NCBI GenBank assembly: GCA_028693235.1
Contig: JAQUVW010000003.1
Coordinates: 182,069 to 246,068, forward strand
Reading direction: 5' to 3'
Origin: Candidatus Gastranaerophilales bacterium
Lineage (GTDB): Bacteria; Cyanobacteriota; Vampirovibrionia; Gastranaerophilales; Gastranaerophilaceae
DNA: 64,000 bases
Shown: positions 1,972 to 49,310 of the stretch, one piece after another
Layout: each line of letters begins with the position of its first letter
How positions within the stretch are numbered: the stretch's first letter is position 1
Translations under genes and position numbers: made by a program
Notes under the pieces: model-generated
What the model saw: the letters and a program-made list of their open reading frames with translations, nothing else
Told to the model about the DNA's origin: nothing
The model's database searches: none

Positions 1972-3414
1972 TTATTTTTCTTGCCAGATAGTACCGTCTT
2001 TATTATCCTTTAGGATAATATTTATGCTATCTAAAAGGTTTCTGATTTTATCAGCAACGTCCCAATTTTTATTTGAACGAGCTTCATTTCTGACAGCTAT
2101 AACTCTTTCCATAAGAGCGTTTCCTGTTAATTTTTTATCTGTTTCAGGCAAAAAATCAAAGTCTGCGACAATATTATCCAATCTTTCTGAAAGCTCAGAT
2201 TCAGATAATTCATCTTTTTCGACTTTGAAGCCCATAACATTTGTCAATTTTACGAGTGCTGAGACAGCTTGTAAGGCACCTTGTTTATCATTTGCGTCTT
2301 TACACTTATTGGCAGCAGTTGCGAGGTCAAAAAGAACCGCTAACGCCTTTGAAGTGTTAAAGTCATTATCCATTGCTTCCTTGAATTGTTCAATTTCAGG
2401 GACATCAATATCTTCTAGCAAATTAGCTTCGCCGACATATTTCACCCCATCGTTGTAAGCTGTTTTTAATCGTTTAAATCCTGCTTGAGCACCGGCTAAC
2501 GCCATATCATTAAACTCAACCGGCATTCTATAATGATTTGTTAAAATGAAAAATCTGATTGTATTTGAATCATAGTTTTCAAGCAATGCGTCAATGCTGA
2601 CAAAATTCTTTAGCGACTTCGACATTTTTTCTTTATTAATAGTTACAAATCCGTTATGAAGCCAATATTTGACAAATCTGCACCCATTTGCACACTCTGA
2701 CTGTGCTATTTCATTTTCATGATGAGGGAAAATCAAATCCGCACCACCGGCATGAATATCAATTTCCTTAGCCAAATGCTTGCGAGCCATTGCACTACAC
2801 TCAATATGCCACCCCGGTCTGCCAAGTCCCCATGGACTCTTAAATCCGTCAATTTCATCTTTTTTCCACAACGCAAAGTCCAAAACATCTTCTTTTTTAG
2901 ATGACGCTTCAACTCTTGCACCTGCAACCAAGTCATCAATCGGTTGTTTGCTCAATTTGCCGTAATCTTTAAACTTCTTAACTCTGAAATAAACGTCTCC
3001 ATCAACCTCATAAGCAAAACCTTTATTTATAAGATCTTTCACGATTGCTATCATTTCACCGATAGTTTTTGTCGCAAAAGGTTCAATATCAGGCTTCAAT
3101 ATGTTTAATTTGTCCATACTGTCTGAAAAAATTTTATAATATTTTTGAGAAATTTCTTGTTGCGTAGAATTTTCAGCCTTTGCTTTAGCCAAAATTTTAT
3201 CATCTACATCCGTCACATTCCTACAATACCTGACGTCATAGCCTAAAAATTTCAAATATCGATAAACCATATCCCAAGTAATATAGCATCTGGCATGTCC
3301 TAAATGCGGATGGTCATAAACAGTAGGTCCACAGACATACATATTAACTTTGCCCTCTGTAATAGGACTAAATTCTTCTGTTTGGTTACTAAATGAGTTA
3401 TGTACTTTTAGCAT
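1972..3414 (-). CDS. cysS: Cysteine--tRNA ligase
   Basis: 480 aa; class I HIGH motif (HLGH) and KMSKS present; typical CysRS N-terminus and length. Confidence 0.95.
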   Translation of the reverse strand: MLKVHNSFSNQTEEFSPITEGKVNMYVCGPTVYDHPHLGHARCYITWDMVYRYLKFLGYDVRYCRNVTDVDDKILAKAKAENSTQQEISQKYYKIFSDSMDKLNILKPDIEPFATKTIGEMIAIVKDLINKGFAYEVDGDVYFRVKKFKDYGKLSKQPIDDLVAGARVEASSKKEDVLDFALWKKDEIDGFKSPWGLGRPGWHIECSAMARKHLAKEIDIHAGGADLIFPHHENEIAQSECANGCRFVKYWLHNGFVTINKEKMSKSLKNFVSIDALLENYDSNTIRFFILTNHYRMPVEFNDMALAGAQAGFKRLKTAYNDGVKYVGEANLLEDIDVPEIEQFKEAMDNDFNTSKALAVLFDLATAANKCKDANDKQGALQAVSALVKLTNVMGFKVEKDELSESELSERLDNIVADFDFLPETDKKLTGNALMERVIAVRNEARSNKNWDVADKIRNLLDSINIILKDNKDGTIWQEK

Positions 3415-3492: not shown

Positions 3493-6400
3493 CTATTCAG
3501 CTTTATACAAAACTAATGAGTTGTAATCATCAGGTCTGATTGTGATTTTTCCGCCGTCTTCTGCTTTTAGAACATAGTGACCGCCTTCTTTTGCGACTAC
3601 AAATGTTCTGTCTTTATCAGCCAAATTTGTACTCTTAAAGATAGTGCCTTCTGTCAAGCCGCCTGCAAGTCCCTCTTTAGGAGCCCTATTCTTTGCAGTT
3701 TTGATTTGGTCTCCATCAGCATGGTTGTAATTTTCAGAACCGCCATCAAGTCTGATAGAATCAAGATTGACTTCTTCACGTTTTATCGAATCATGTGCAT
3801 TAACACTTAAACCCGCCAATGAATATGCAGTAATTACAGCCTGTCCTTTGTCATTGTATCTCAAGACAGAATACGTATCATTGTCCATTGGCAATGAAAC
3901 AGGAATTCCATCATTCAATGGTGCTAATTCGGGTTTGTTTCTATAATCCAAAATCGCATTCATTTTCTTTTCGTATTTTGCAACTTCTTCATTATAGTAT
4001 TTTTGATTTTTAGGGTCGGTTCTTTCCCAAACAAGCGTATTTCTATTTTGTTGATAATAGTTTTTAGCTTTGGTTTCGTAGCCTGTTGTTCCGATTTTAT
4101 CACCGCCAAAGTCCGTAACATCACCGGGGAGTGTAACCATCATCTTGTAAATACTGTAGTTCTTTTCAAATGCAGGTTTCATAACATTATTAAATACCGC
4201 ATCTTTTATAATTTTTTCATCTTTTTCGTTTATTTTTAATCCATTGGATTTTGCTTGCTCAAAAACATTATCAAGAGCTTTATCAACAGGTCTTGCACCA
4301 AAAGCATCAGGTTTAAATTTTTCACCTTTGAATTTTCCTGAAGCAATCTCAGCAATTGCTTTATCTAAAGAAGCTTTAATATCATCGTTAAGAGTATTTT
4401 TCAAAGATTTATCTGCTGCAGCTTGAGCCAATCCGTCTTTTAGAGCCTTGCCCATTGCAATTGCTGGTGATGAAACTTTATCATAATTGATAGAAATATC
4501 ATCTTTGCCCAATACTTCTGCCGCAATTTTTTGATCATTTGCATCAGTCATAGGAGAATAGAACAATCCCATATCTAAAGCCAATGAGTGCAAAATTCTC
4601 GGTTTATCATGGTTTCCTACAAATGTATATGAATGAAGAACACCTTCAAGCGGAGTTTGATAGAAAAAGCCAGGATTTTCACTCCAACCTTCAATCAAAT
4701 TTTTTCTTGTTTCTACAGGATTTCCATACTTACTATTGGTTTCACCAGTTTCAGCAGATTTGTTAAACAGCTCAGGTACAGAAGAGAAGAAATAAGTATA
4801 ATTGGCTGTTGTTGTAATGCCTGTATCACGAATAAATTTAGCCTCTGCATCCCAAGGTCCTGAGAATCTGCCATCAGGATTTTTGTTAAATAACTGCTCT
4901 AAATCAGTTATTTCAGCTGCTGTATAAGAATGAGGATTAACCTCTGTAACAGCTTTATTATATGCTTTCCAGAAATCTATAGCTTTGTCAAAAGTTTCAC
5001 CTGCTCCATCAGTGCCGTTTCTTACAGAATCAATGGGAGCTACATCTTTTGCAGCATCAATTCTCCAGTTCAAGCCTGTTTCTGTTCTATCAACCAATGC
5101 TTCTGCTAACAAATAAGAATTTACATCTGCACCTTTTAATCGTTTTTTTAAGGCTGCAGTTAATTCTTTTTTGTCTTCATCACTAATTTTAGCAAAATTT
5201 TCACTCATTTTATCGATTAAAGCGTCAGCATTTTCTTCAGGCGAATTCATATCTATACCCAAAGAGCCTAATGTAATATCCGCAGGGTTAATTTTAGACA
5301 AATCCAACTCGCCGTTTTTATCAAATTCAATAGGAGCATTAGGTGCTATAGATTTAATCAAAGCATATTGTGTCACATCATCCATTACATCTTTAATAAC
5401 AAACTTACCTAATGCATTTGGAGAACTGCCATCTGACAAATCCATTCCCAACCCTTTCAATATTTTAATTGAAAAGGAAGCTATATCATTAGCCAAGAAG
5501 CTATCTGCTTTATCATAAATTTGTTGATATTTCGGTTTTAAATTAGGATTTCCTTTTTGATACAAATCAAATCTTGAAACGCCGAGCTCATCTTTATTTG
5601 AAGCTCTTTTTGCAATATACGGAGATGTCAAAACTGCCAACAAATCATTATTTGCAGGAAGTGCTTCCAATGGATAATCCATTATTTTTTTGGCTAGAGT
5701 ATTTATTACAGTATCGTTTGACTCAAGTGTTTTGGATTCGTATCTCCCATTTATAATATTTCTTATAACAGGTGAAGTCATTGCCTCTATTGAAGATTTC
5801 GGCAAATTACCTGCTTTAACTTCGTCTTGAATTTTTTGCATATATGCTTTTGCTGACGGCTCCTTTACGCCTCTCAACAATGAAGCAGCATAAGAAGTCG
5901 TCGTATCTGCTGTCAATTGAGTCCAATATTTTCCTGATGACAATGCATAATCTTGAACAGCCCAAACGCCTTCTTCCATTGCTTCCATTGCCTCTTTACG
6001 TTCTTCTTTTGGTAAAGAATCAACGTATTTTTTGACATCTTCTGTACCATAAGAGAAATTCAATTTTGCAATATCGACATTTCCGTCCCAAGCAACAAAG
6101 CCACCCTCATTTTTTTGGTCGATTTTGAAATTATCAAATTGCATTATGTTTTTTACAGCGTCCATGCTTTGCAAACTGGCATCTTTACCGTTTAAAGCTA
6201 TATATTTATCTATATTTTGCTTTAATTGTTCAGGCTTAACTTCAAACGAATATGGATACACTGTATCGTCATGAGCTGTTATATCATAGTTATTATCTGT
6301 ATTATTTTTTGCGTACGTATTAATCAGATTATTGTCAGTCATTTGTTTTTTATCAGCCAATCTGGTATCAAAAAACTGAACGTATGTCGGTTTCTTCACG

Positions 6401-33747: not shown

Positions 33748-33762
33748 AGATACATAAGCCAT

Positions 33763-33835
33763 TGGGGCGTCGCCAAGTGGTAAGGCACCTGGTTTTGGTC
33801 CAGGCATCTCGGAGGTTCGAATCCTTCCGCCCCAG
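33763..33835 (+). tRNA. tRNA-Gln (anticodon TTG); CCA not encoded
   Basis: Cloverleaf read by eye: acceptor tggggcg/cgcccca, anticodon arm cctgg-ttTTGgt-ccagg, T-loop ggttcgaat; very close to classical bacterial tRNA-Gln. Confidence 0.92.
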
Positions 33836-33846
33836 AATTTAAAAAA

Positions 33847-33871: not shown

Positions 33872-33954
33872 GTATATATAACCTTTCTAGGACATTTTGA
33901 TGAGAATTTGAGAGGCAAGAGTGCCACGTTTAGGCTAATTGAGCCTAGTTTTTA

Positions 33955-33987
33955 GTGTTGAGATTTAGCGTCAAAAAATGTCCGAAA
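33955..33987 (+). repeat. Left-end repeat copy 1 (gtgttgagatttagcgtcaaaaaatgtccgaaa)
   Basis: Shares GTGTTGAGAT..GTCAAAA with 34185-34209 and ~26/30 nt with 49284-49310, all in the same orientation. Confidence 0.7.
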
Positions 33988-34003
33988 CTTCCGTTTTCTT
34001 GCA

Positions 34004-34173
34004 CAGAATTGCACTAGAAATTTAAGATTTGTGATAATTCTTGGTTGCTCGCGTTAAACGTGTCTGCACGGCAAGGCTCAACGCCTTGACCGTTCCGCAC
34101 TCTGCTCGCAATCCGCTCCCCCACCCCGAGCGAGTCGTTTCTTGGACGAAATCATGTAAATAGTGCAATTCTG
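34004..34173. repeat. 13-bp perfect inverted repeat (cagaattgcacta 34004-34016 / tagtgcaattctg 34161-34173) enclosing GC-rich module A
   Basis: Arms read directly and are exact reverse complements; they bracket ~144 nt. Confidence 0.8.
34044..34146. repeat. GC-rich module A (non-coding, left end of island)
   Basis: Conspicuously G+C-rich block in AT-rich DNA; reverse strand contains GAGCGGATTGCGAGCAGAGTGCGGAACGG, related to modules B and C; internal hairpin caaggc-tcaac-gccttg. Confidence 0.6.
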
Positions 34174-34184
34174 CACTATCACTT

Positions 34185-34209
34185 GTGTTGAGATGTGTCA
34201 AAATATCTG
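34185..34209 (+). repeat. Left-end repeat copy 2 (gtgttgagatgtgtcaaaatatctg), followed by a third partial copy tgtgagatttgg
   Basis: Direct repeat of 33955-33987 on the other side of the IR-enclosed GC-rich module. Confidence 0.65.
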
Positions 34210-34286
34210 TGAGATTTGGATGAAAGACTTGATGTTTCTGCGAAACAGAGCAATTAATGTGTATGTAACCGAAAGGAGAAACACAC

Positions 34287-34484
34287 ATGGATATTGCTTA
34301 TGGAACCAAAATTCAAAACTTAAAAACTAATGAAATTGGTTTATTAATTAAAGTTTGGAAAAATAAATTTGCTGATGGCAAAATTGACTTCGCTACATGC
34401 GTGGATAAAAACGGAAAACGCTACAATATTGAATTAGATTTAATAACTCCAATTAAGGAGGTTGAAGATGATTCTAAAAAATAG
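34287..34484 (+). CDS. Small hypothetical protein (65 aa), first gene of the island
   Basis: ATG preceded by aaaggag RBS; no recognisable motif. Confidence 0.45.
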   Translation: MDIAYGTKIQNLKTNEIGLLIKVWKNKFADGKIDFATCVDKNGKRYNIELDLITPIKEVEDDSKK

Positions 34485-34701: not shown

Positions 34702-36540
34702 ATGGATATAAATTTTACACCAGAAAAGTCAAAACAAATTGCACTCGCAAGATTAGATTTAATTCACCAATGGCAAGAATTTAGAAGAAAATCTACAAAT
34801 AAATTATCTGCCGACTATGATTTTGTAAAATTACATAATTCTTCAAATTCATATTTATTTGAGATCTTAGGAAAAATATCGAGAGGAAGTTTGCATCGTT
34901 GGAATAATTTGTTAAATGGAAGTGAAGATTATACTTTACTTCTACCTCAGTATAAATATTCTTGTATTGTAGAATATCGAACAGTTTTAACCGACGAAGA
35001 AATCAGAATCTTTATGGGTTTGTTGCTACATCCGAACCGACTTTCAATCGGTAAAGCTACGGCATTGACAAAATACAAACTAAAACAACAAGGTCAAAAT
35101 TTTATCCCAGCCGATATAACATTCAGAAGATATGCAAAGTGGTTCAAAGACAACAATTATGACAAATGGATACTTGCCAGAGATGGTGAAAAAGCTCTGT
35201 CAGATAAAGTTGAACCATATATCAAACGTGATGCGAGTTTGCTTGAAGTCGGAGATATTTTAGTCGCCGACGGTCATAAATTAGCTTTTCAAGTGATAAA
35301 TCCATTCACAGGAAAACCCAAAATGGCGACATTAGTTGGATTTTTGGATTGGAAATCAACAGCTTTGGTTGGCTATGAAATTATGTTAGAGGAAAATACT
35401 CAATGTATAGCTTCCGCTCTCCGTAATTCAATAATAAATTTAGATATGATTCCCAAAGTTGTTTATCAAGATAACGGCAGAGCTTTTAGAGCAAAGTATT
35501 TTACAGACGATAAAGGGTTCTCGGAACTTGGTTTTAACGGATTGTACTCAAAACTCGGAATAGAAACAGTATTTGCAAGACCATATAATGCAAGGGCGAA
35601 AGTTATAGAACGATTTTTTAAAGAATTTCAAGAAGGTTTTGAAAAATTATTACCAAGTTATGTCGGCTCAGCAATTTCTGAAAAACCTGCGTACTTAAAA
35701 AGAAATGAAAGATTTCATGCAAATTTACATTCCGAATATGTACCGACAATTGAAGAAGCGGATTTTGGCAAGTGCGGAGTCGAACGAAGTGAACGAGCAC
35801 GTCCTGCGGCGGTGAACGGTGGAATGAAGCATTTTGCGAAGCAAAACTGCGGAATGAAATCCGAGTTCACCAAGCTGCCAACAATCCAAGACACAATAAA
35901 AATTATTGATATGTGGTTGAGTTTTAAAAATTCTCAACCTTGTCCAAATTCTCCTGACAAAATGATTGCAGAAGTTTTAGAAGATAGAAAGCGTCAAAAT
36001 ATAAACACTGATACATTGGACGATTTGATGTTAGCAACCGAAGTTAAGACAATTCAGAGAAATGGCATAAGATTTTTGAACTACGATTATTTTGATGAAC
36101 GACTTTATGGTTTCAAAAATAAAGTGCGGATAAAATACAACCTTTTTGATTTAACAAGTATCAAAGTTTTTACGATAAAAGGCGAATATCTTTGTAAGGC
36201 AGAGAGAGTAACCGAAACTCATCCGATGGCGAAGATTTTGGGTGACGTAAAAGATTTAGAAGATTACAAACAAAAAATTGAAAAACAACGGAAGTTAAGA
36301 AAGAAAACGATAAATTCAGTCAAGGAATTGTTATCTAATGATGAATGCAAATTTATTGAAACAAAAATTATAAAAAATGAAGAATTTTTAACACCCGTTA
36401 AAACGTCGTTTAAAAGCTCTTTAAATGGCGTTTATAAAAATAATTCTGAAAAATATGAATATCTTGTGAAAAATAATCCTCAAGATAAGTGGATTGAAGA
36501 ATTTAAACAAACAAAGGAGTACAAATTATTGTATGATTAG
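34702..36540 (+). CDS. DDE (rve-type) transposase of the MuA/TnsB/TniA class, carrying an in-frame GC-rich insertion
   Basis: Candidate catalytic D/D/E in VADGHKL, VYQDNGRAFRA, ARPYNARAKVIERFFKEF; Mu-transposase C-terminal barrel pattern GIRFLNYDYFDERLYGFKNKVRIKYNLFDLTSIKVF. Confidence 0.85.
   Translation: MDINFTPEKSKQIALARLDLIHQWQEFRRKSTNKLSADYDFVKLHNSSNSYLFEILGKISRGSLHRWNNLLNGSEDYTLLLPQYKYSCIVEYRTVLTDEEIRIFMGLLLHPNRLSIGKATALTKYKLKQQGQNFIPADITFRRYAKWFKDNNYDKWILARDGEKALSDKVEPYIKRDASLLEVGDILVADGHKLAFQVINPFTGKPKMATLVGFLDWKSTALVGYEIMLEENTQCIASALRNSIINLDMIPKVVYQDNGRAFRAKYFTDDKGFSELGFNGLYSKLGIETVFARPYNARAKVIERFFKEFQEGFEKLLPSYVGSAISEKPAYLKRNERFHANLHSEYVPTIEEADFGKCGVERSERARPAAVNGGMKHFAKQNCGMKSEFTKLPTIQDTIKIIDMWLSFKNSQPCPNSPDKMIAEVLEDRKRQNINTDTLDDLMLATEVKTIQRNGIRFLNYDYFDERLYGFKNKVRIKYNLFDLTSIKVFTIKGEYLCKAERVTETHPMAKILGDVKDLEDYKQKIEKQRKLRKKTINSVKELLSNDECKFIETKIIKNEEFLTPVKTSFKSSLNGVYKNNSEKYEYLVKNNPQDKWIEEFKQTKEYKLLYD
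35757..35880. repeat. GC-rich module B, in frame inside the transposase ORF
   Basis: gcggattttggcaagtgcggagtcgaacgaagtgaacgagc...ctgcggaatgaaatccgagttcacc; terminal inverted cggattt/aaatccg, internal hairpin ttttgc-gaa-gcaaaa; encodes an Ala/Arg/Gly-rich segment unlike the rest of the protein. Confidence 0.65.
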
Positions 36541-37213
36541 AAAATTTGTCAGAACGCAAAATGTTAAAAACTTTATAGGGCTTGTTGAAAATTTAATCAA
36601 TAAACCAAAGAACGTACCAAAAATGGCATTGGTTTATGGCGAACCCGGACTTGGTAAATCTCAAACTGCATTATGGCTAAGTTGCAAATATGATGCTATA
36701 TATTTGAGAGCAACAAATCTTATGACTGGTCGATGGTTACTTTAAGAACTGGTTAAAGAAATTGATGAAATACCGAGATTTTTGACTGCGGACAACTTCA
36801 ATTTACTTTGTAAAAAACTAAAACAGAAGCCAAAGCTGATTATCATTGATGAAATTGATTATTTGATGAATAATTCAAAAACAATAGAAACTTTGCGTGA
36901 TATTCATGATGAAACAGATTGCCCGATAATCTTTGTTGGGATGGGTTTAGCACATAGAAAACTTGAACGATACAAACATTTATATGATAGATTTTTAGAA
37001 ATTCTGCAATTCGAAACTTTTGAAGTAGCGGATTTAAAACAGATTTTTGATGAATTATCAGAAGTTACAGTAACTGCTGATGCAATTGAATATATCTATA
37101 AAAAATATAATCGTTTCAGGCAAATTATTCAGTTGATAAATCAGTTGGAAACTATTGCTAAAGAGAATAATTTTACTGAAATTACCGAAGAAACAGTGAG
37201 GCAGATAATATGA
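36533..37213 (+). pseudogene. TniB/TnsC/MuB-like AAA+ transposition ATPase interrupted by one in-frame TAA (36743-36745)
   Basis: Walker A GEPGLGKS before the stop and Walker B LIIIDEID after it, both in the same frame; the ATG overlaps the transposase stop. Confidence 0.75.
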
Positions 37214-37322: not shown

Positions 37323-37880
37323 ATGGATATACTTAAATTAGCAAAACACCTAAAAGAATTTACGCTTGATGAAATTGAAATGATAGCTGAATGTGATTGT
37401 AAAACCGAACTTGAAAAGTTGTTAAGTGAACATAAAATAGCGTTTAAAAATAAAAAATACGAATACATTGAAAAACAAAATGAGGAATATTCAATATTTA
37501 TAAATAAAAAATCTAAAAATATAAATTATGAATTTACGGACGCCGTACACGATTTTTTAGAAAATTATGCAAAAAAATATTGTAAATCTGGTACTTGTAA
37601 AAACTACAGAACCATTTTTAATTATGGAATTTTACCATTTTTCAAAAATAAACATATTGGGGATATTCAAATTAATGATGTAAAAATTTTTTATAAAAAA
37701 TGTCAGGAATTAAATTTCAAATCAAGACGGATAAAAAACACTTTAGCTCTTTTAAATCAATTATTAAAATATTTTCAGGAGCAAGGATTTATAAAAAGTA
37801 GATGTATTTTTCAAGTAAAACGACTGACAGCCAAAAACGAATTTAATAAAAATAGGTTAATTTTTAAGGAGAATTTATGA
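37323..37880 (+). CDS. Stand-alone tyrosine-recombinase core-binding (phage integrase N-terminal SAM-like) domain protein; no catalytic domain
   Basis: FTDAVHDFLENYAKKYCKSGTCKNYRTIFNYGILPFFKNKHIGDIQINDVKIFYKK...IKNTLALLNQLLKYFQEQGFI fits the four-helix core-binding pattern; the ORF ends ~25 aa later; ATG 37323 with ggaaagga RBS. Confidence 0.55.
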   Translation: MDILKLAKHLKEFTLDEIEMIAECDCKTELEKLLSEHKIAFKNKKYEYIEKQNEEYSIFINKKSKNINYEFTDAVHDFLENYAKKYCKSGTCKNYRTIFNYGILPFFKNKHIGDIQINDVKIFYKKCQELNFKSRRIKNTLALLNQLLKYFQEQGFIKSRCIFQVKRLTAKNEFNKNRLIFKENL

Positions 37881-38296
37881 GTAAAAAACGACATTACAAC
37901 GAAGCAGAACGACTTTTTATATGTGATGGATTGTCAGCAGATGAAATAGCAAGAAAATTTGAGATTTCACGCAGAACAATTTTTTATTGGAAGAAGGAAT
38001 ATAATTGGGATAAGAAGCGAGCGGATTATTTGTTCAACAATACCAGAATGAGCTTTGAAATCAATGATTTTACAAGAAAGTTGATGGATAAAATTATGAC
38101 GGATATTGATAACAATAGACAAGTTAGCCAGTCAGAAATTTATACGGTTTTAAACTTAATAAAACGCATGCTAGAAATCAAAAATTACGAAGACGAAATC
38201 GTCAAAGCTAAAAAAGAAGAAAAACCGAAAGAACTGACGCCTGAATTGATTATGCAAATAAACAAAGATATTCTTGGTTGGGACGGAACTTATTAA
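37877..38296 (+). CDS. HTH DNA-binding protein (small-terminase-like / DUF1804-like N-terminus)
   Basis: AERLFICDGLSADEIARKFEISRRTIFYWKKEYNWDKKR is a helix-turn-helix followed by a W-rich motif; ATGA overlap with the upstream gene. Confidence 0.45.
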   Translation: MSKKRHYNEAERLFICDGLSADEIARKFEISRRTIFYWKKEYNWDKKRADYLFNNTRMSFEINDFTRKLMDKIMTDIDNNRQVSQSEIYTVLNLIKRMLEIKNYEDEIVKAKKEEKPKELTPELIMQINKDILGWDGTY

Positions 38297-49283: not shown

Positions 49284-49310
49284 AAGATTTAGCGTCCAAA
49301 AAGTTCCGAA
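49284..49310 (+). repeat. Copy of the left-end repeat at the right side (aagatttagcgtccaaaaagttccgaa), same orientation as 33955-33987
   Basis: Direct comparison: agatttagcgtc(c)aaaaa(a)(t)gt(t)ccgaa. Confidence 0.65.

Follow-up and report, generated by a model that had tools for sequence, protein, structure and literature searches.

Arms and core of a 13-bp inverted repeat at the tRNA-proximal end of a Gastranaerophilaceae Mu/Tn7-like transposon: a probable protein-binding array with a dispersed structured repeat in its spacer

In phage Mu, the operator/transpositional enhancer (internal activation sequence, IAS, O1-O2) is formed by clusters of short repeated sites with a bendable spacer and is located inside the gene-proximal end, 5' of the MuA-type transposase operon; the pac site of Mu is located in the left end. 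Tn7 and the type V-K CRISPR-associated transposons (CAST) encode TnsB-related transposases, reside 3' of tRNA genes with the gene-proximal end facing the tRNA, and have repeated sites at their ends. Small terminases recognize phased repeats located on either side of a bent spacer, as lambda gpNu1 does at the R sites of cosB and SPP1 G1P does at pacL/pacR, and lambda attP carries sites in its P and P' arms. Small dispersed repeats of bacterial genomes include the hairpin-forming repetitive extragenic palindromes (REP) and the Rickettsia palindromic elements (RPE). In this study, a locus at the tRNA-proximal, gene-proximal end of a Gastranaerophilaceae Mu/Tn7-like transposon was analysed and compared with these systems. 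The locus, positions 34004-34173, belongs to a stretch of 64,000 nucleotides of a Candidatus Gastranaerophilales bacterium (contig JAQUVW010000003.1), referred to here as the window, and had been singled out from its sequence (the original prediction) as a 13-bp perfect inverted repeat enclosing a GC-rich core.

Comparison with related transposon ends assigned the 13-bp arms to a six-site array of TTGCAC and its reverse complement GTGCAA, in which they correspond to L3 and R3, the sites that are best kept. The unit is probably a composite, in which the arms belong to a conserved DNA-level protein-binding array and the GC-rich core is a separate element in the array spacer, namely a minus-strand copy (77 nt) of a dispersed repeat termed R1. 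In the following, array sites are always called sites, and R1 alone denotes the repeat. The features of the unit were as follows.

33999-34004, plus strand: TTGCAC site L2 of the array; site L1 is lost in the window subtype
34004-34016, plus strand: left arm of the 13-bp inverted repeat, containing TTGCAC site L3 (34009-34014)
34040-34116, minus strand: GC-rich dispersed structured repeat (the core of 'module A' of the original prediction), 77 nt, in the sense direction GCGGATTGCGAGCAGAG-(P2, P3 hairpin)-CGTTTAACGCGAGCAACCAAG; found by covariance model R1
34117-34152, no strand: residual GC-rich spacer segment TCCCCCACCCCGAGCGAGTCGTTTCTTGGACG, outside the R1 element; found by pairwise alignment
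34160-34179, plus strand: local palindrome ATAGTGCA-ATTC-TGCACTAT, overlapping site R3; flagged by a terminator-like scan
34161-34173, plus strand: right arm of the inverted repeat, containing GTGCAA site R3 (34163-34168); sites R1 and R2 are degenerate

The array was recognized in 51 distinct instances in related transposon ends as TTGCAC-N14-TTGCAC-N4-TTGCAC, a spacer of 62 to 64 nt, and GTGCAA-N4-GTGCAA-N4-GTGCAA. The spacer was 63 nt long in 26 instances, 64 nt in 17 and 62 nt in eight, and its length was kept while its sequences were of several unrelated types. The hexamers were invariant, and site spacings of 20/10 and 10/10 placed them in a 10-bp register. In nearly all loci, 63 nt separate the last site from a leader anchor, and exactly this distance is found in the window, from site R3 at 34163 to the anchor at 34226. 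The order of elements in the ends of relatives was the terminal block (TATAACC..CAGGAC..GTGATGGGAG..GTGTAGAGATTT), the TTGCAC triplet, the spacer, the GTGCAA triplet, the leader GACTTGATGTTTCTGCGAAACAGAGC, a hairpin with the ribosome-binding site, and the start codon. The TTGCAC and GTGCAA copies of the window fit the array positions, and thus the 13-bp repeat consists of sites L3 and R3 with matching flanks. The window subtype keeps three of the six sites (L2, L3 and R3), sites L1, R1 and R2 having decayed. The array was the same whichever tRNA or transfer-messenger RNA (tmRNA) gene adjoined it.

Triplets of invariant motifs with a 10-bp register, together with a spacer conserved in length only, are predicted by a protein-DNA assembly and not by an RNA helix. 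The original prediction had allowed for either a protein-bound end complex or an RNA with the 13-bp arms as its closing stem; the RNA reading did not survive the comparison with relatives, and the protein-bound reading would fit the invariant hexamers and their register as well as a constant spacer length and a constant distance to the leader. A DnaA-box reading of TTTTGCACT, which matches eight of nine positions of the DnaA-box consensus TTWTNCACA, was rejected, since the 'free' position is an invariant G and the last base is never A. A metagenome scan with TTGCACAGAATTGCAC for window-type ends returned chance matches, and neither of the two of 120 matches that passed the context filter was a relative.

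The physical description of the unit in the original prediction was confirmed. The arms CAGAATTGCACTA (34004-34016) and TAGTGCAATTCTG (34161-34173) form a perfect inverted repeat whose halves are separated by 144 nt, the inner hairpin caaggc-tcaac-gccttg is present and is the apical helix of the GC-rich element, and the G+C content peaks at 0.62 at 34050-34149 against approximately 0.33 in the surroundings. The unit is located, as described, in the gap between tRNA-Gln (33762-33836) with its terminator and the first open reading frame (ORF), which starts at 34287. The minus-strand ORF (34022-34288) said to ride on the GC-rich block had no family match and runs through the stop-free frames of the element, and no reverse transcriptase, TnpB or IS110-type gene was found among the neighbouring ORFs by Pfam and NCBIfam scans. 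Six perfect 13-bp inverted repeats with a gap of 200 nt or less are present in the window, while approximately 0.9 are expected from a first-order Markov model. A repeat of this length is therefore not rare at the scale of the window, and the reality of the feature rests on its conservation in relatives.

The RNA reading, in which the arms close the GC-rich core into a single structured non-coding RNA resembling a retron, bridge, guide or antitoxin RNA, predicts covariation of the arms. For the comparative alignment of the stem, 39 distinct arrays from related ends were aligned without gaps, with site L1 paired with site R3 and sites L2-L3 including their linkers paired with sites R1-R2. No covariation was found: the score was 0.019, below the shuffle mean of 0.029, and the observed value was equalled or exceeded in 499 of 500 shuffles. 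The hexamer cores never varied in the 39 arrays, and the linker positions could pair in about half of the sequences or fewer. Individual relatives agreed with this result. In genome G011 the arms match at 12 of 13 positions with no compensating change, and the palindrome overlapping site R3 is destroyed (..TTCTCCACT). In locus L031/G111 both arms are present, matching at 12 of 13 positions with a longest exact run of 10 bp, again uncompensated, and the R1 element is absent from between them. In genome G099 only an 8-bp repeat (AATTGCAC/GTGCAATT) was found, with a different GC-rich insert in the spacer. A search of the window and 12 related loci against Rfam 15, at the gathering threshold and with E values up to 10, identified only tRNAs.

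Perfect complementarity over 13 bp, a predicted fold of either strand that pairs the arms, and a core that is truly structured all speak for a single RNA. Set against these are the lack of arm covariation and of compensating changes, arms made of triplicated hexamers in register, the absence or exchange of the core between the same arms, the occurrence of the core elsewhere as a dispersed repeat in ORFs and intergenic DNA, and the lack of an Rfam match or of a neighbouring reverse transcriptase, TnpB or IS110-type gene. The comparative data largely refute the stem, and a single structured RNA appears very improbable; the arms and the core are two unrelated things.

Several observations weigh against an interpretation of the arms as parts of a protein-binding array. 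The perfect 13-bp match is longer than the 6 to 8 bp that such sites need, and the region 34000-34180 folds better than shuffled sequences on both strands (z -3.5 and -3.8), with the arms paired in the predicted fold; according to this modelling, a fortuitous RNA or cruciform structure may form in the window copy. A consensus promoter scan found no sigma-70-like site between the array and the first ORF. With three of six sites left and its spacing altered by an insert, the array in the window copy is possibly non-functional, and an in-frame TAA in the ATPase gene of the transposon suggests an immobilised copy. The degraded array, the stretched spacing and the ATPase stop together indicate that the window copy is probably no longer active.

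The inner helices of the core, which were also proposed for comparative analysis, gave the opposite result from the arms. BLAST against 60 related genomes matched 34039-34119 to many dispersed places, several of them at contig ends, with weaker matches to the core elsewhere in the order. When read on the minus strand, the copies share GCGGATTGCGAGCAGAG and CGTTTAACGCGAGCAACCAAG around a hairpin that is freely variable in sequence and length. RNAalifold analysis of 17 copies identified three helices: an outer helix, a short second helix and the apical hairpin. The outer helix is GG(A)UUGC-GA-GC / GC-GA-GCAACC, in which the tandem G.A becomes Watson-Crick in some copies, and the second helix covaries among GGG/CCC, GGC/GCC, GUG/CAC and GAGC/GCUC. 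Paired bases were found in 94.4% of the cells of the R1 pairs, and 10 of the 19 pairs had changes on both sides. The core thus proved strongly covarying, with a score of 0.393 against 0.132 in shuffled alignments, and none of 500 shuffles was as high. The covariance model built for R1 scored the window copy with 80.4 bits (E 2.8e-20). In 40 of 42 copies of R1, the sense strand gave the more stable fold of the two strands, as is generally the case for G+U-rich strands.

R1 was detected in 121 of 151 Gastranaerophilaceae genomes, which represent 55 of 60 genera; the number of copies per genome ranged from 1 to more than 31, these copy numbers being lower bounds. In a phylum-wide sample, all 67 R1-positive genomes were within Gastranaerophilaceae. 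No Rfam 15 family was found for R1 or relatives of the core, and nothing relevant was found in the literature on repeats in Gastranaerophilales or Melainabacteria.

Elsewhere, R1 was located in intergenic DNA and directly 5' of ribosome-binding sites, some copies were arranged in tandem, and others were in frame within long ORFs; seven of 53 copies were deep inside stop-free frames of at least 150 amino acids. Alignments of arrays and transposase genes revealed presence and absence of R1 at homologous sites, indicating independent insertions. The array of the window provides such a case. Locus L031/G111 shares the arms and the flanking GC-rich remnant with the window and lacks the R1 element, and pairwise alignment identified the residual segment 34117-34152 in this element-free relative as well. 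The distance from site L3 to site R3 is 85 nt in L031 and 154 nt in the window and in G011. The copies of R1 in G011 and on contig C3 of the window's own genome had uncompensated helix changes, as expected for a neutrally decaying passenger. By these comparisons, the GC-rich core reads as a passenger that is independent of the arms and hitch-hikes in a tolerant spacer. At the insert junctions no target duplication and no terminal inverted repeats were found, and the upstream flank was A-rich.

Independent in-frame inserts were also observed in transposase genes of this transposon family. The transposase gene of L031 has an in-frame copy after codon 9 (4028-4100), and those of L056 and L074 have in-frame inserts (at about 5022-5082) approximately 15 nt from the site of 'module B' of the window, presumably a tolerant loop. 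Module B is an in-frame GC-rich insert at 35757-35880, and alignment to L072 showed that this insert makes the transposase of the window approximately 50 amino acids longer than those of relatives. Modules B and C were tried as members of R1 and rejected: module B matched weakly (13.8 bits, E 0.017) and module C did not match (3.6 bits, E 8.7), so that modules A, B and C are at best distant relatives.

Larger composite modules containing R1 were seen in L111-L117 (genome G026) and L123-L125 (genomes G129 and G166), where heptamer-like tandem repeats (GTGAAAR, GTGATTAA, GTGAGGA) are often located 5' of R1 and CAGGTTCTTATCGG.. is located 3'; these modules are often at contig ends and thus break assemblies. 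In L126 (G162), L127 (G103) and L012 (G050), a C5-type DNA methyltransferase gene beside a Mu-F-like head gene is extended at its C-terminal end by a 73-nt R1 copy, which is identical in all three. The flanks of these copies have diverged among the three genomes, and the extended methyltransferase locus is probably part of a shared prophage.

Other sequences were found in the array spacers. Another small palindromic repeat, GTCA(Y)(S)CTGAACTTGTTTCAG(S)(R)TC, occurs in the array spacers of L038, L047, L058, L095 and others, and also in L111, L114 and L117. Its stem displays a compensatory G-C/C-G switch; it fills the array spacer in many elements with the length unchanged, and elsewhere in the genomes it adjoins R1 copies. 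GC-rich inserts unrelated to R1 are present in the array spacers of L131 (G099) and L132 (G165), with the sequence GACGGGTGCA..GCGAGCTTGCGAGC.., and L031 contains one at 3346-3410, between the TTGAGAT repeat and the leader. As far as these sequences show, the transposon ends collect several families of small GC-rich modules.

The direct repeats said to flank the unit were partly supported. The 10-bp sequence GTGTTGAGAT is repeated exactly at 33955-33964 and 34185-34194, and its continuation is merely 71% alike (33970-33990 and 34197-34217). The GTGTTGAGAT sequence contains TTGAGAT, and the TTGAGAT block was kept in relatives without the GC insert. Because the GTGTTGAGAT blocks are conserved in ends that lack the GC core, they appear to be conserved parts of the transposon end and not target-site duplications. 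Within the island, TTGAGAT was found twice on the plus strand at the tRNA-side end and twice on the minus strand at the far side (49240 and 49386), while the TTGCAC/GTGCAA cluster was found at the tRNA-side end only, with none at the far side. A cluster at one end only is not composed of ordinary terminal transposase sites, and TTGAGAT would be the better candidate for such sites, although this 7-mer is not rare overall.

These repeats bear on another explanation, in which the whole 170-bp unit is a miniature inverted-repeat transposable element (MITE), with the arms as terminal inverted repeats and GTGTTGAGAT as the insertion duplication. Inverted termini, a length of about 170 bp and flanking direct repeats are all present, and an end on contig C1 of the same genome lacks the whole block between GAGATTTAG and GAGATTTGG. 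The 170-bp unit is not dispersed, however, its BLAST matches being only to paralogous or orthologous transposon ends, and ends that have no GC core retain the two arms and the two direct repeats. The copy on C1 (9864-9985) is a solo end remnant with no transposase following, and it is best read as a deletion between the GAGATTT direct repeats that removed the array. A MITE is accordingly given hardly any credence here. A further end block on contig C3 of the same genome (1104-1383), beside another tRNA gene (tRNA-Leu, as read by eye), has the left arm and the decayed R1 copy, and its homology ends just before the right arm.

The array and the R1 copy in its spacer are part of a host transposon whose remaining features at this end were as follows.

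33762-33836, plus strand: tRNA-Gln(UUG), the attachment landmark of the element; ARAGORN, and Rfam tRNA with 57 bits
33841-33870, plus strand: terminator hairpin of the tRNA gene, AAAAAAGACTTTC / GAAAGCCTTTTTT; found as an inverted repeat
33877-33968, plus strand: conserved terminal block of the transposon end, TATAACCTTTCTAGGACATTTTGATG ... GTGTTGAGATTTAG; found from copies in the same genome and in relatives
33955-33964, plus strand: first GTGTTGAGAT direct repeat with TTGAGAT, a candidate transposase end-binding site
34185-34251, plus strand: conserved leader block with the second GTGTTGAGAT, then GTGTCAAAATATCTGTGAGATTTGG, then the anchor GACTTGATGTTTCTGCGAAACAGAGC (34226-34251)
34258-34289, plus strand: hairpin with the ribosome-binding site (TGTGT..AAAGGAG..ACACA) and the ATG of the first ORF; read from the sequence
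34702-36540, plus strand: MuA/TnsB-like DDE transposase of 612 amino acids; Pfam Mu-transpos_C

The terminal block has copies that are 90-91% identical in the same genome (C1:9894-9985 and C3:1292-1383), and 15 related ends begin with a block matching it. The sequence 34188-34268 was matched directly 5' of the transposase gene in most of 80 related loci, and relatives have an equivalent hairpin with the ribosome-binding site, GTGTATG..AAGGAAA..CATACAC-ATG, for which a regulatory role appears plausible. The closest solved relative of the transposase is TnsB of type V-K CAST (7svw, 8rdu; E 6e-4). Pfam and NCBIfam scans identified the downstream genes as those for the DDE transposase, a TniB/MuB-like AAA+ ATPase, a protein with an integrase core-binding domain only (Phage_int_SAM_3) and a DUF1804/terminase-small-like helix-turn-helix (HTH) protein (37877-38296). 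The genes for the latter two proteins are present in every core module. The ATPase gene (36533-37213) has a single in-frame TAA at 36743-36745, between the Walker A and Walker B regions, which probably renders this copy of the element immobile.

A scan of species-representative genomes identified 356 loci encoding relatives in Gastranaerophilales/Melainabacteria. Of the 38 related loci examined, 31 have a co-oriented tRNA or tmRNA gene shortly 5' of the element end, and many different tRNAs are used. A search of the window and the genome for an inverted copy of the terminal 20-100 nt, which would define the far end of the element, gave nothing convincing. At the far side of the island, a segment of the end block (33961-33989) recurs in direct orientation as AGATTTAGCGTCCAAAAAGTTCCGAA (49286-49310), which may be a trace of a second, nested or tandem element end.

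If the array is a protein-binding platform, an element-encoded DNA-binding protein would occupy both triplets and loop or wrap the 63-nt spacer. Candidate binders are the DUF1804-like HTH protein, the stand-alone core-binding-domain protein and the N-terminus of the transposase. Since the array is identical at different tRNA targets, the binder should be a constant component, and since the N-terminal offset is nearly the same for both proteins when the transposase is aligned with TnsB, the transposase has little room for an extra enhancer-binding domain, which points to one of the two small proteins. A complex formed between the terminal TTGAGAT repeats and the transposase leader may repress or time expression of the transposase, help to build the end complex, or both, and by analogy with the Mu operator/enhancer it could couple control of the transposase promoter with end assembly. 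The R1 copy would then have landed in the tolerant spacer and stretched the interval between the two arms.

The two small proteins suggest two other uses of the array. It might be a packaging or assembly site of the pac/cosB type, in which the terminase-small-like HTH protein binds the triplets and bends the spacer, either as a relic or as a working device of Mu-phage ancestry, for example for packaging by a helper phage. This proposal agrees with the DUF1804/Terminase_5-like gene kept in every core module, with the inverted arrangement of the triplets and with a spacer of fixed length. Large terminase or structural genes were not seen in the elements examined, however, and the location of the array immediately 5' of the transposase leader favours a regulatory or transpososome role, so that a packaging site is considered unlikely. 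Alternatively, the array might hold arm-type or core-type sites for the core-binding-domain protein and form an attP-like intasome for target capture at tRNA genes. The constant presence of this protein would agree with such a role, and inverted clusters of short sites around a spacer recall lambda attP. An array that is invariant across elements at many different tRNA and tmRNA genes cannot carry target specificity, however; moreover, the protein has no catalytic recombinase domain, and no similarity between the array and the tRNA sequences was noted. This possibility appears rather more remote than a packaging site.

With regard to how R1 spreads, Y1 (REP-associated tyrosine transposase, RAYT) genes were considered. 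They were found in six of 10 high-copy genomes and in one of 10 low-copy genomes, where the gene was a fragment. No significant R1 copy was located within approximately 2 kb of the Y1 genes, the single weak partial match having an E value of 0.2. The Y1 genes are flanked by GTAG-type hairpins of their own without significant R1 copies nearby, and R1 was therefore rejected as their cognate REP. Single-copy RAYT-like Y1 genes of 171-185 amino acids with GTAG-headed hairpins on both sides (e.g., GTAGGATGTGGTAAATCTTTGATTTACCGCATC and GTAGGGTGCAATTTATTGCACC) were observed in L261 (G015:C3), L262 (G004:C18) and L263 (G085:C1); by their organization, these loci represent classical REP/RAYT units in Gastranaerophilaceae.

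In conclusion, the analysis removes a false lead, as there is no retron-, bridge- or guide-RNA-like gene at 34004-34173, and defines a candidate cis-acting module, six phased TTGCAC sites with a length-locked spacer, for tRNA-homing Mu/Tn7-like transposons of gut Melainabacteria. This module matters in that the transposon family is without the usual target selectors and carries two small DNA-binding proteins. R1 is a family-wide GC-rich structured repeat with clear covariation that is missing from Rfam; it inflates and interrupts ORFs in uncultured genomes and is relevant to annotation and to the spread of small repeats in AT-rich genomes. We tentatively propose, as a hypothesis that may well prove wrong, that R1 represents a class of mobile elements of gut Melainabacteria that is defined by structure and has not been described, and, separately, that the six-site array may be the docking platform of the orphan HTH or core-binding-domain proteins. 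Such a class would be characterized by a conserved stem with tandem G.A, a covarying second helix and an exchangeable apical hairpin, and would insert after A-rich sequence; the asymmetry in strand folding would point to a single-stranded DNA or RNA intermediate, and the element could settle in frame in genes, including the transposase of its own carrier transposon. If true, the docking platform would offer the first handle on the assembly of a TniQ-less, tRNA-homing transposon family.

Among known systems, the array is similar to the Mu operator/transpositional enhancer in its clusters of short repeated sites, its spacer and its position in the gene-proximal end, 5' of a MuA-type transposase operon. 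It differs in that no repressor gene is located beside it, the sequences are unrelated, and strict 3+3 inverted hexamers are only approximately 120 nt from the terminus; binding to the array is predicted from sequence. Unlike MuA, the transposase of the window is unlikely to have an extra Mu I-alpha-like domain. The element shares with Tn7 and type V-K CAST the TnsB-related transposase, the location 3' of tRNA genes with the gene-proximal end facing the tRNA, and repeated sites at the ends, but has no Cas12k, TniQ or guide RNA. TnsB sites have the same direction within an end and are present at both ends, while half of the TTGCAC sites are inverted and all are at one end; the TTGAGAT repeats fit the pattern of TnsB sites better.

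With respect to R1, REP/RAYT systems likewise consist of dispersed hairpin repeats, the strand-asymmetric fold of R1 suggests a single-stranded intermediate, and RAYT-like Y1 genes are present in some high-copy genomes; R1 is, however, about twice as long as REP and has no GTAG head. RPE, as well as enterobacterial repetitive intergenic consensus (ERIC) and Correia repeats, differ from R1 in sequence and host phylum, which are unrelated. R1 is further distinguished from them by a stem with a conserved tandem G.A, an apical hairpin that varies freely, the lack of MITE-type terminal inverted repeats and of a target duplication, and a very high G+C content in an AT-rich genome. They share with R1, which is 57-95 nt long, a short length, multiple copies, restriction to a lineage, a conserved hairpin, and a location both in intergenic DNA and in frame inside intact ORFs, and by this analogy the behaviour of R1 would most resemble that of the Rickettsia palindromic elements.

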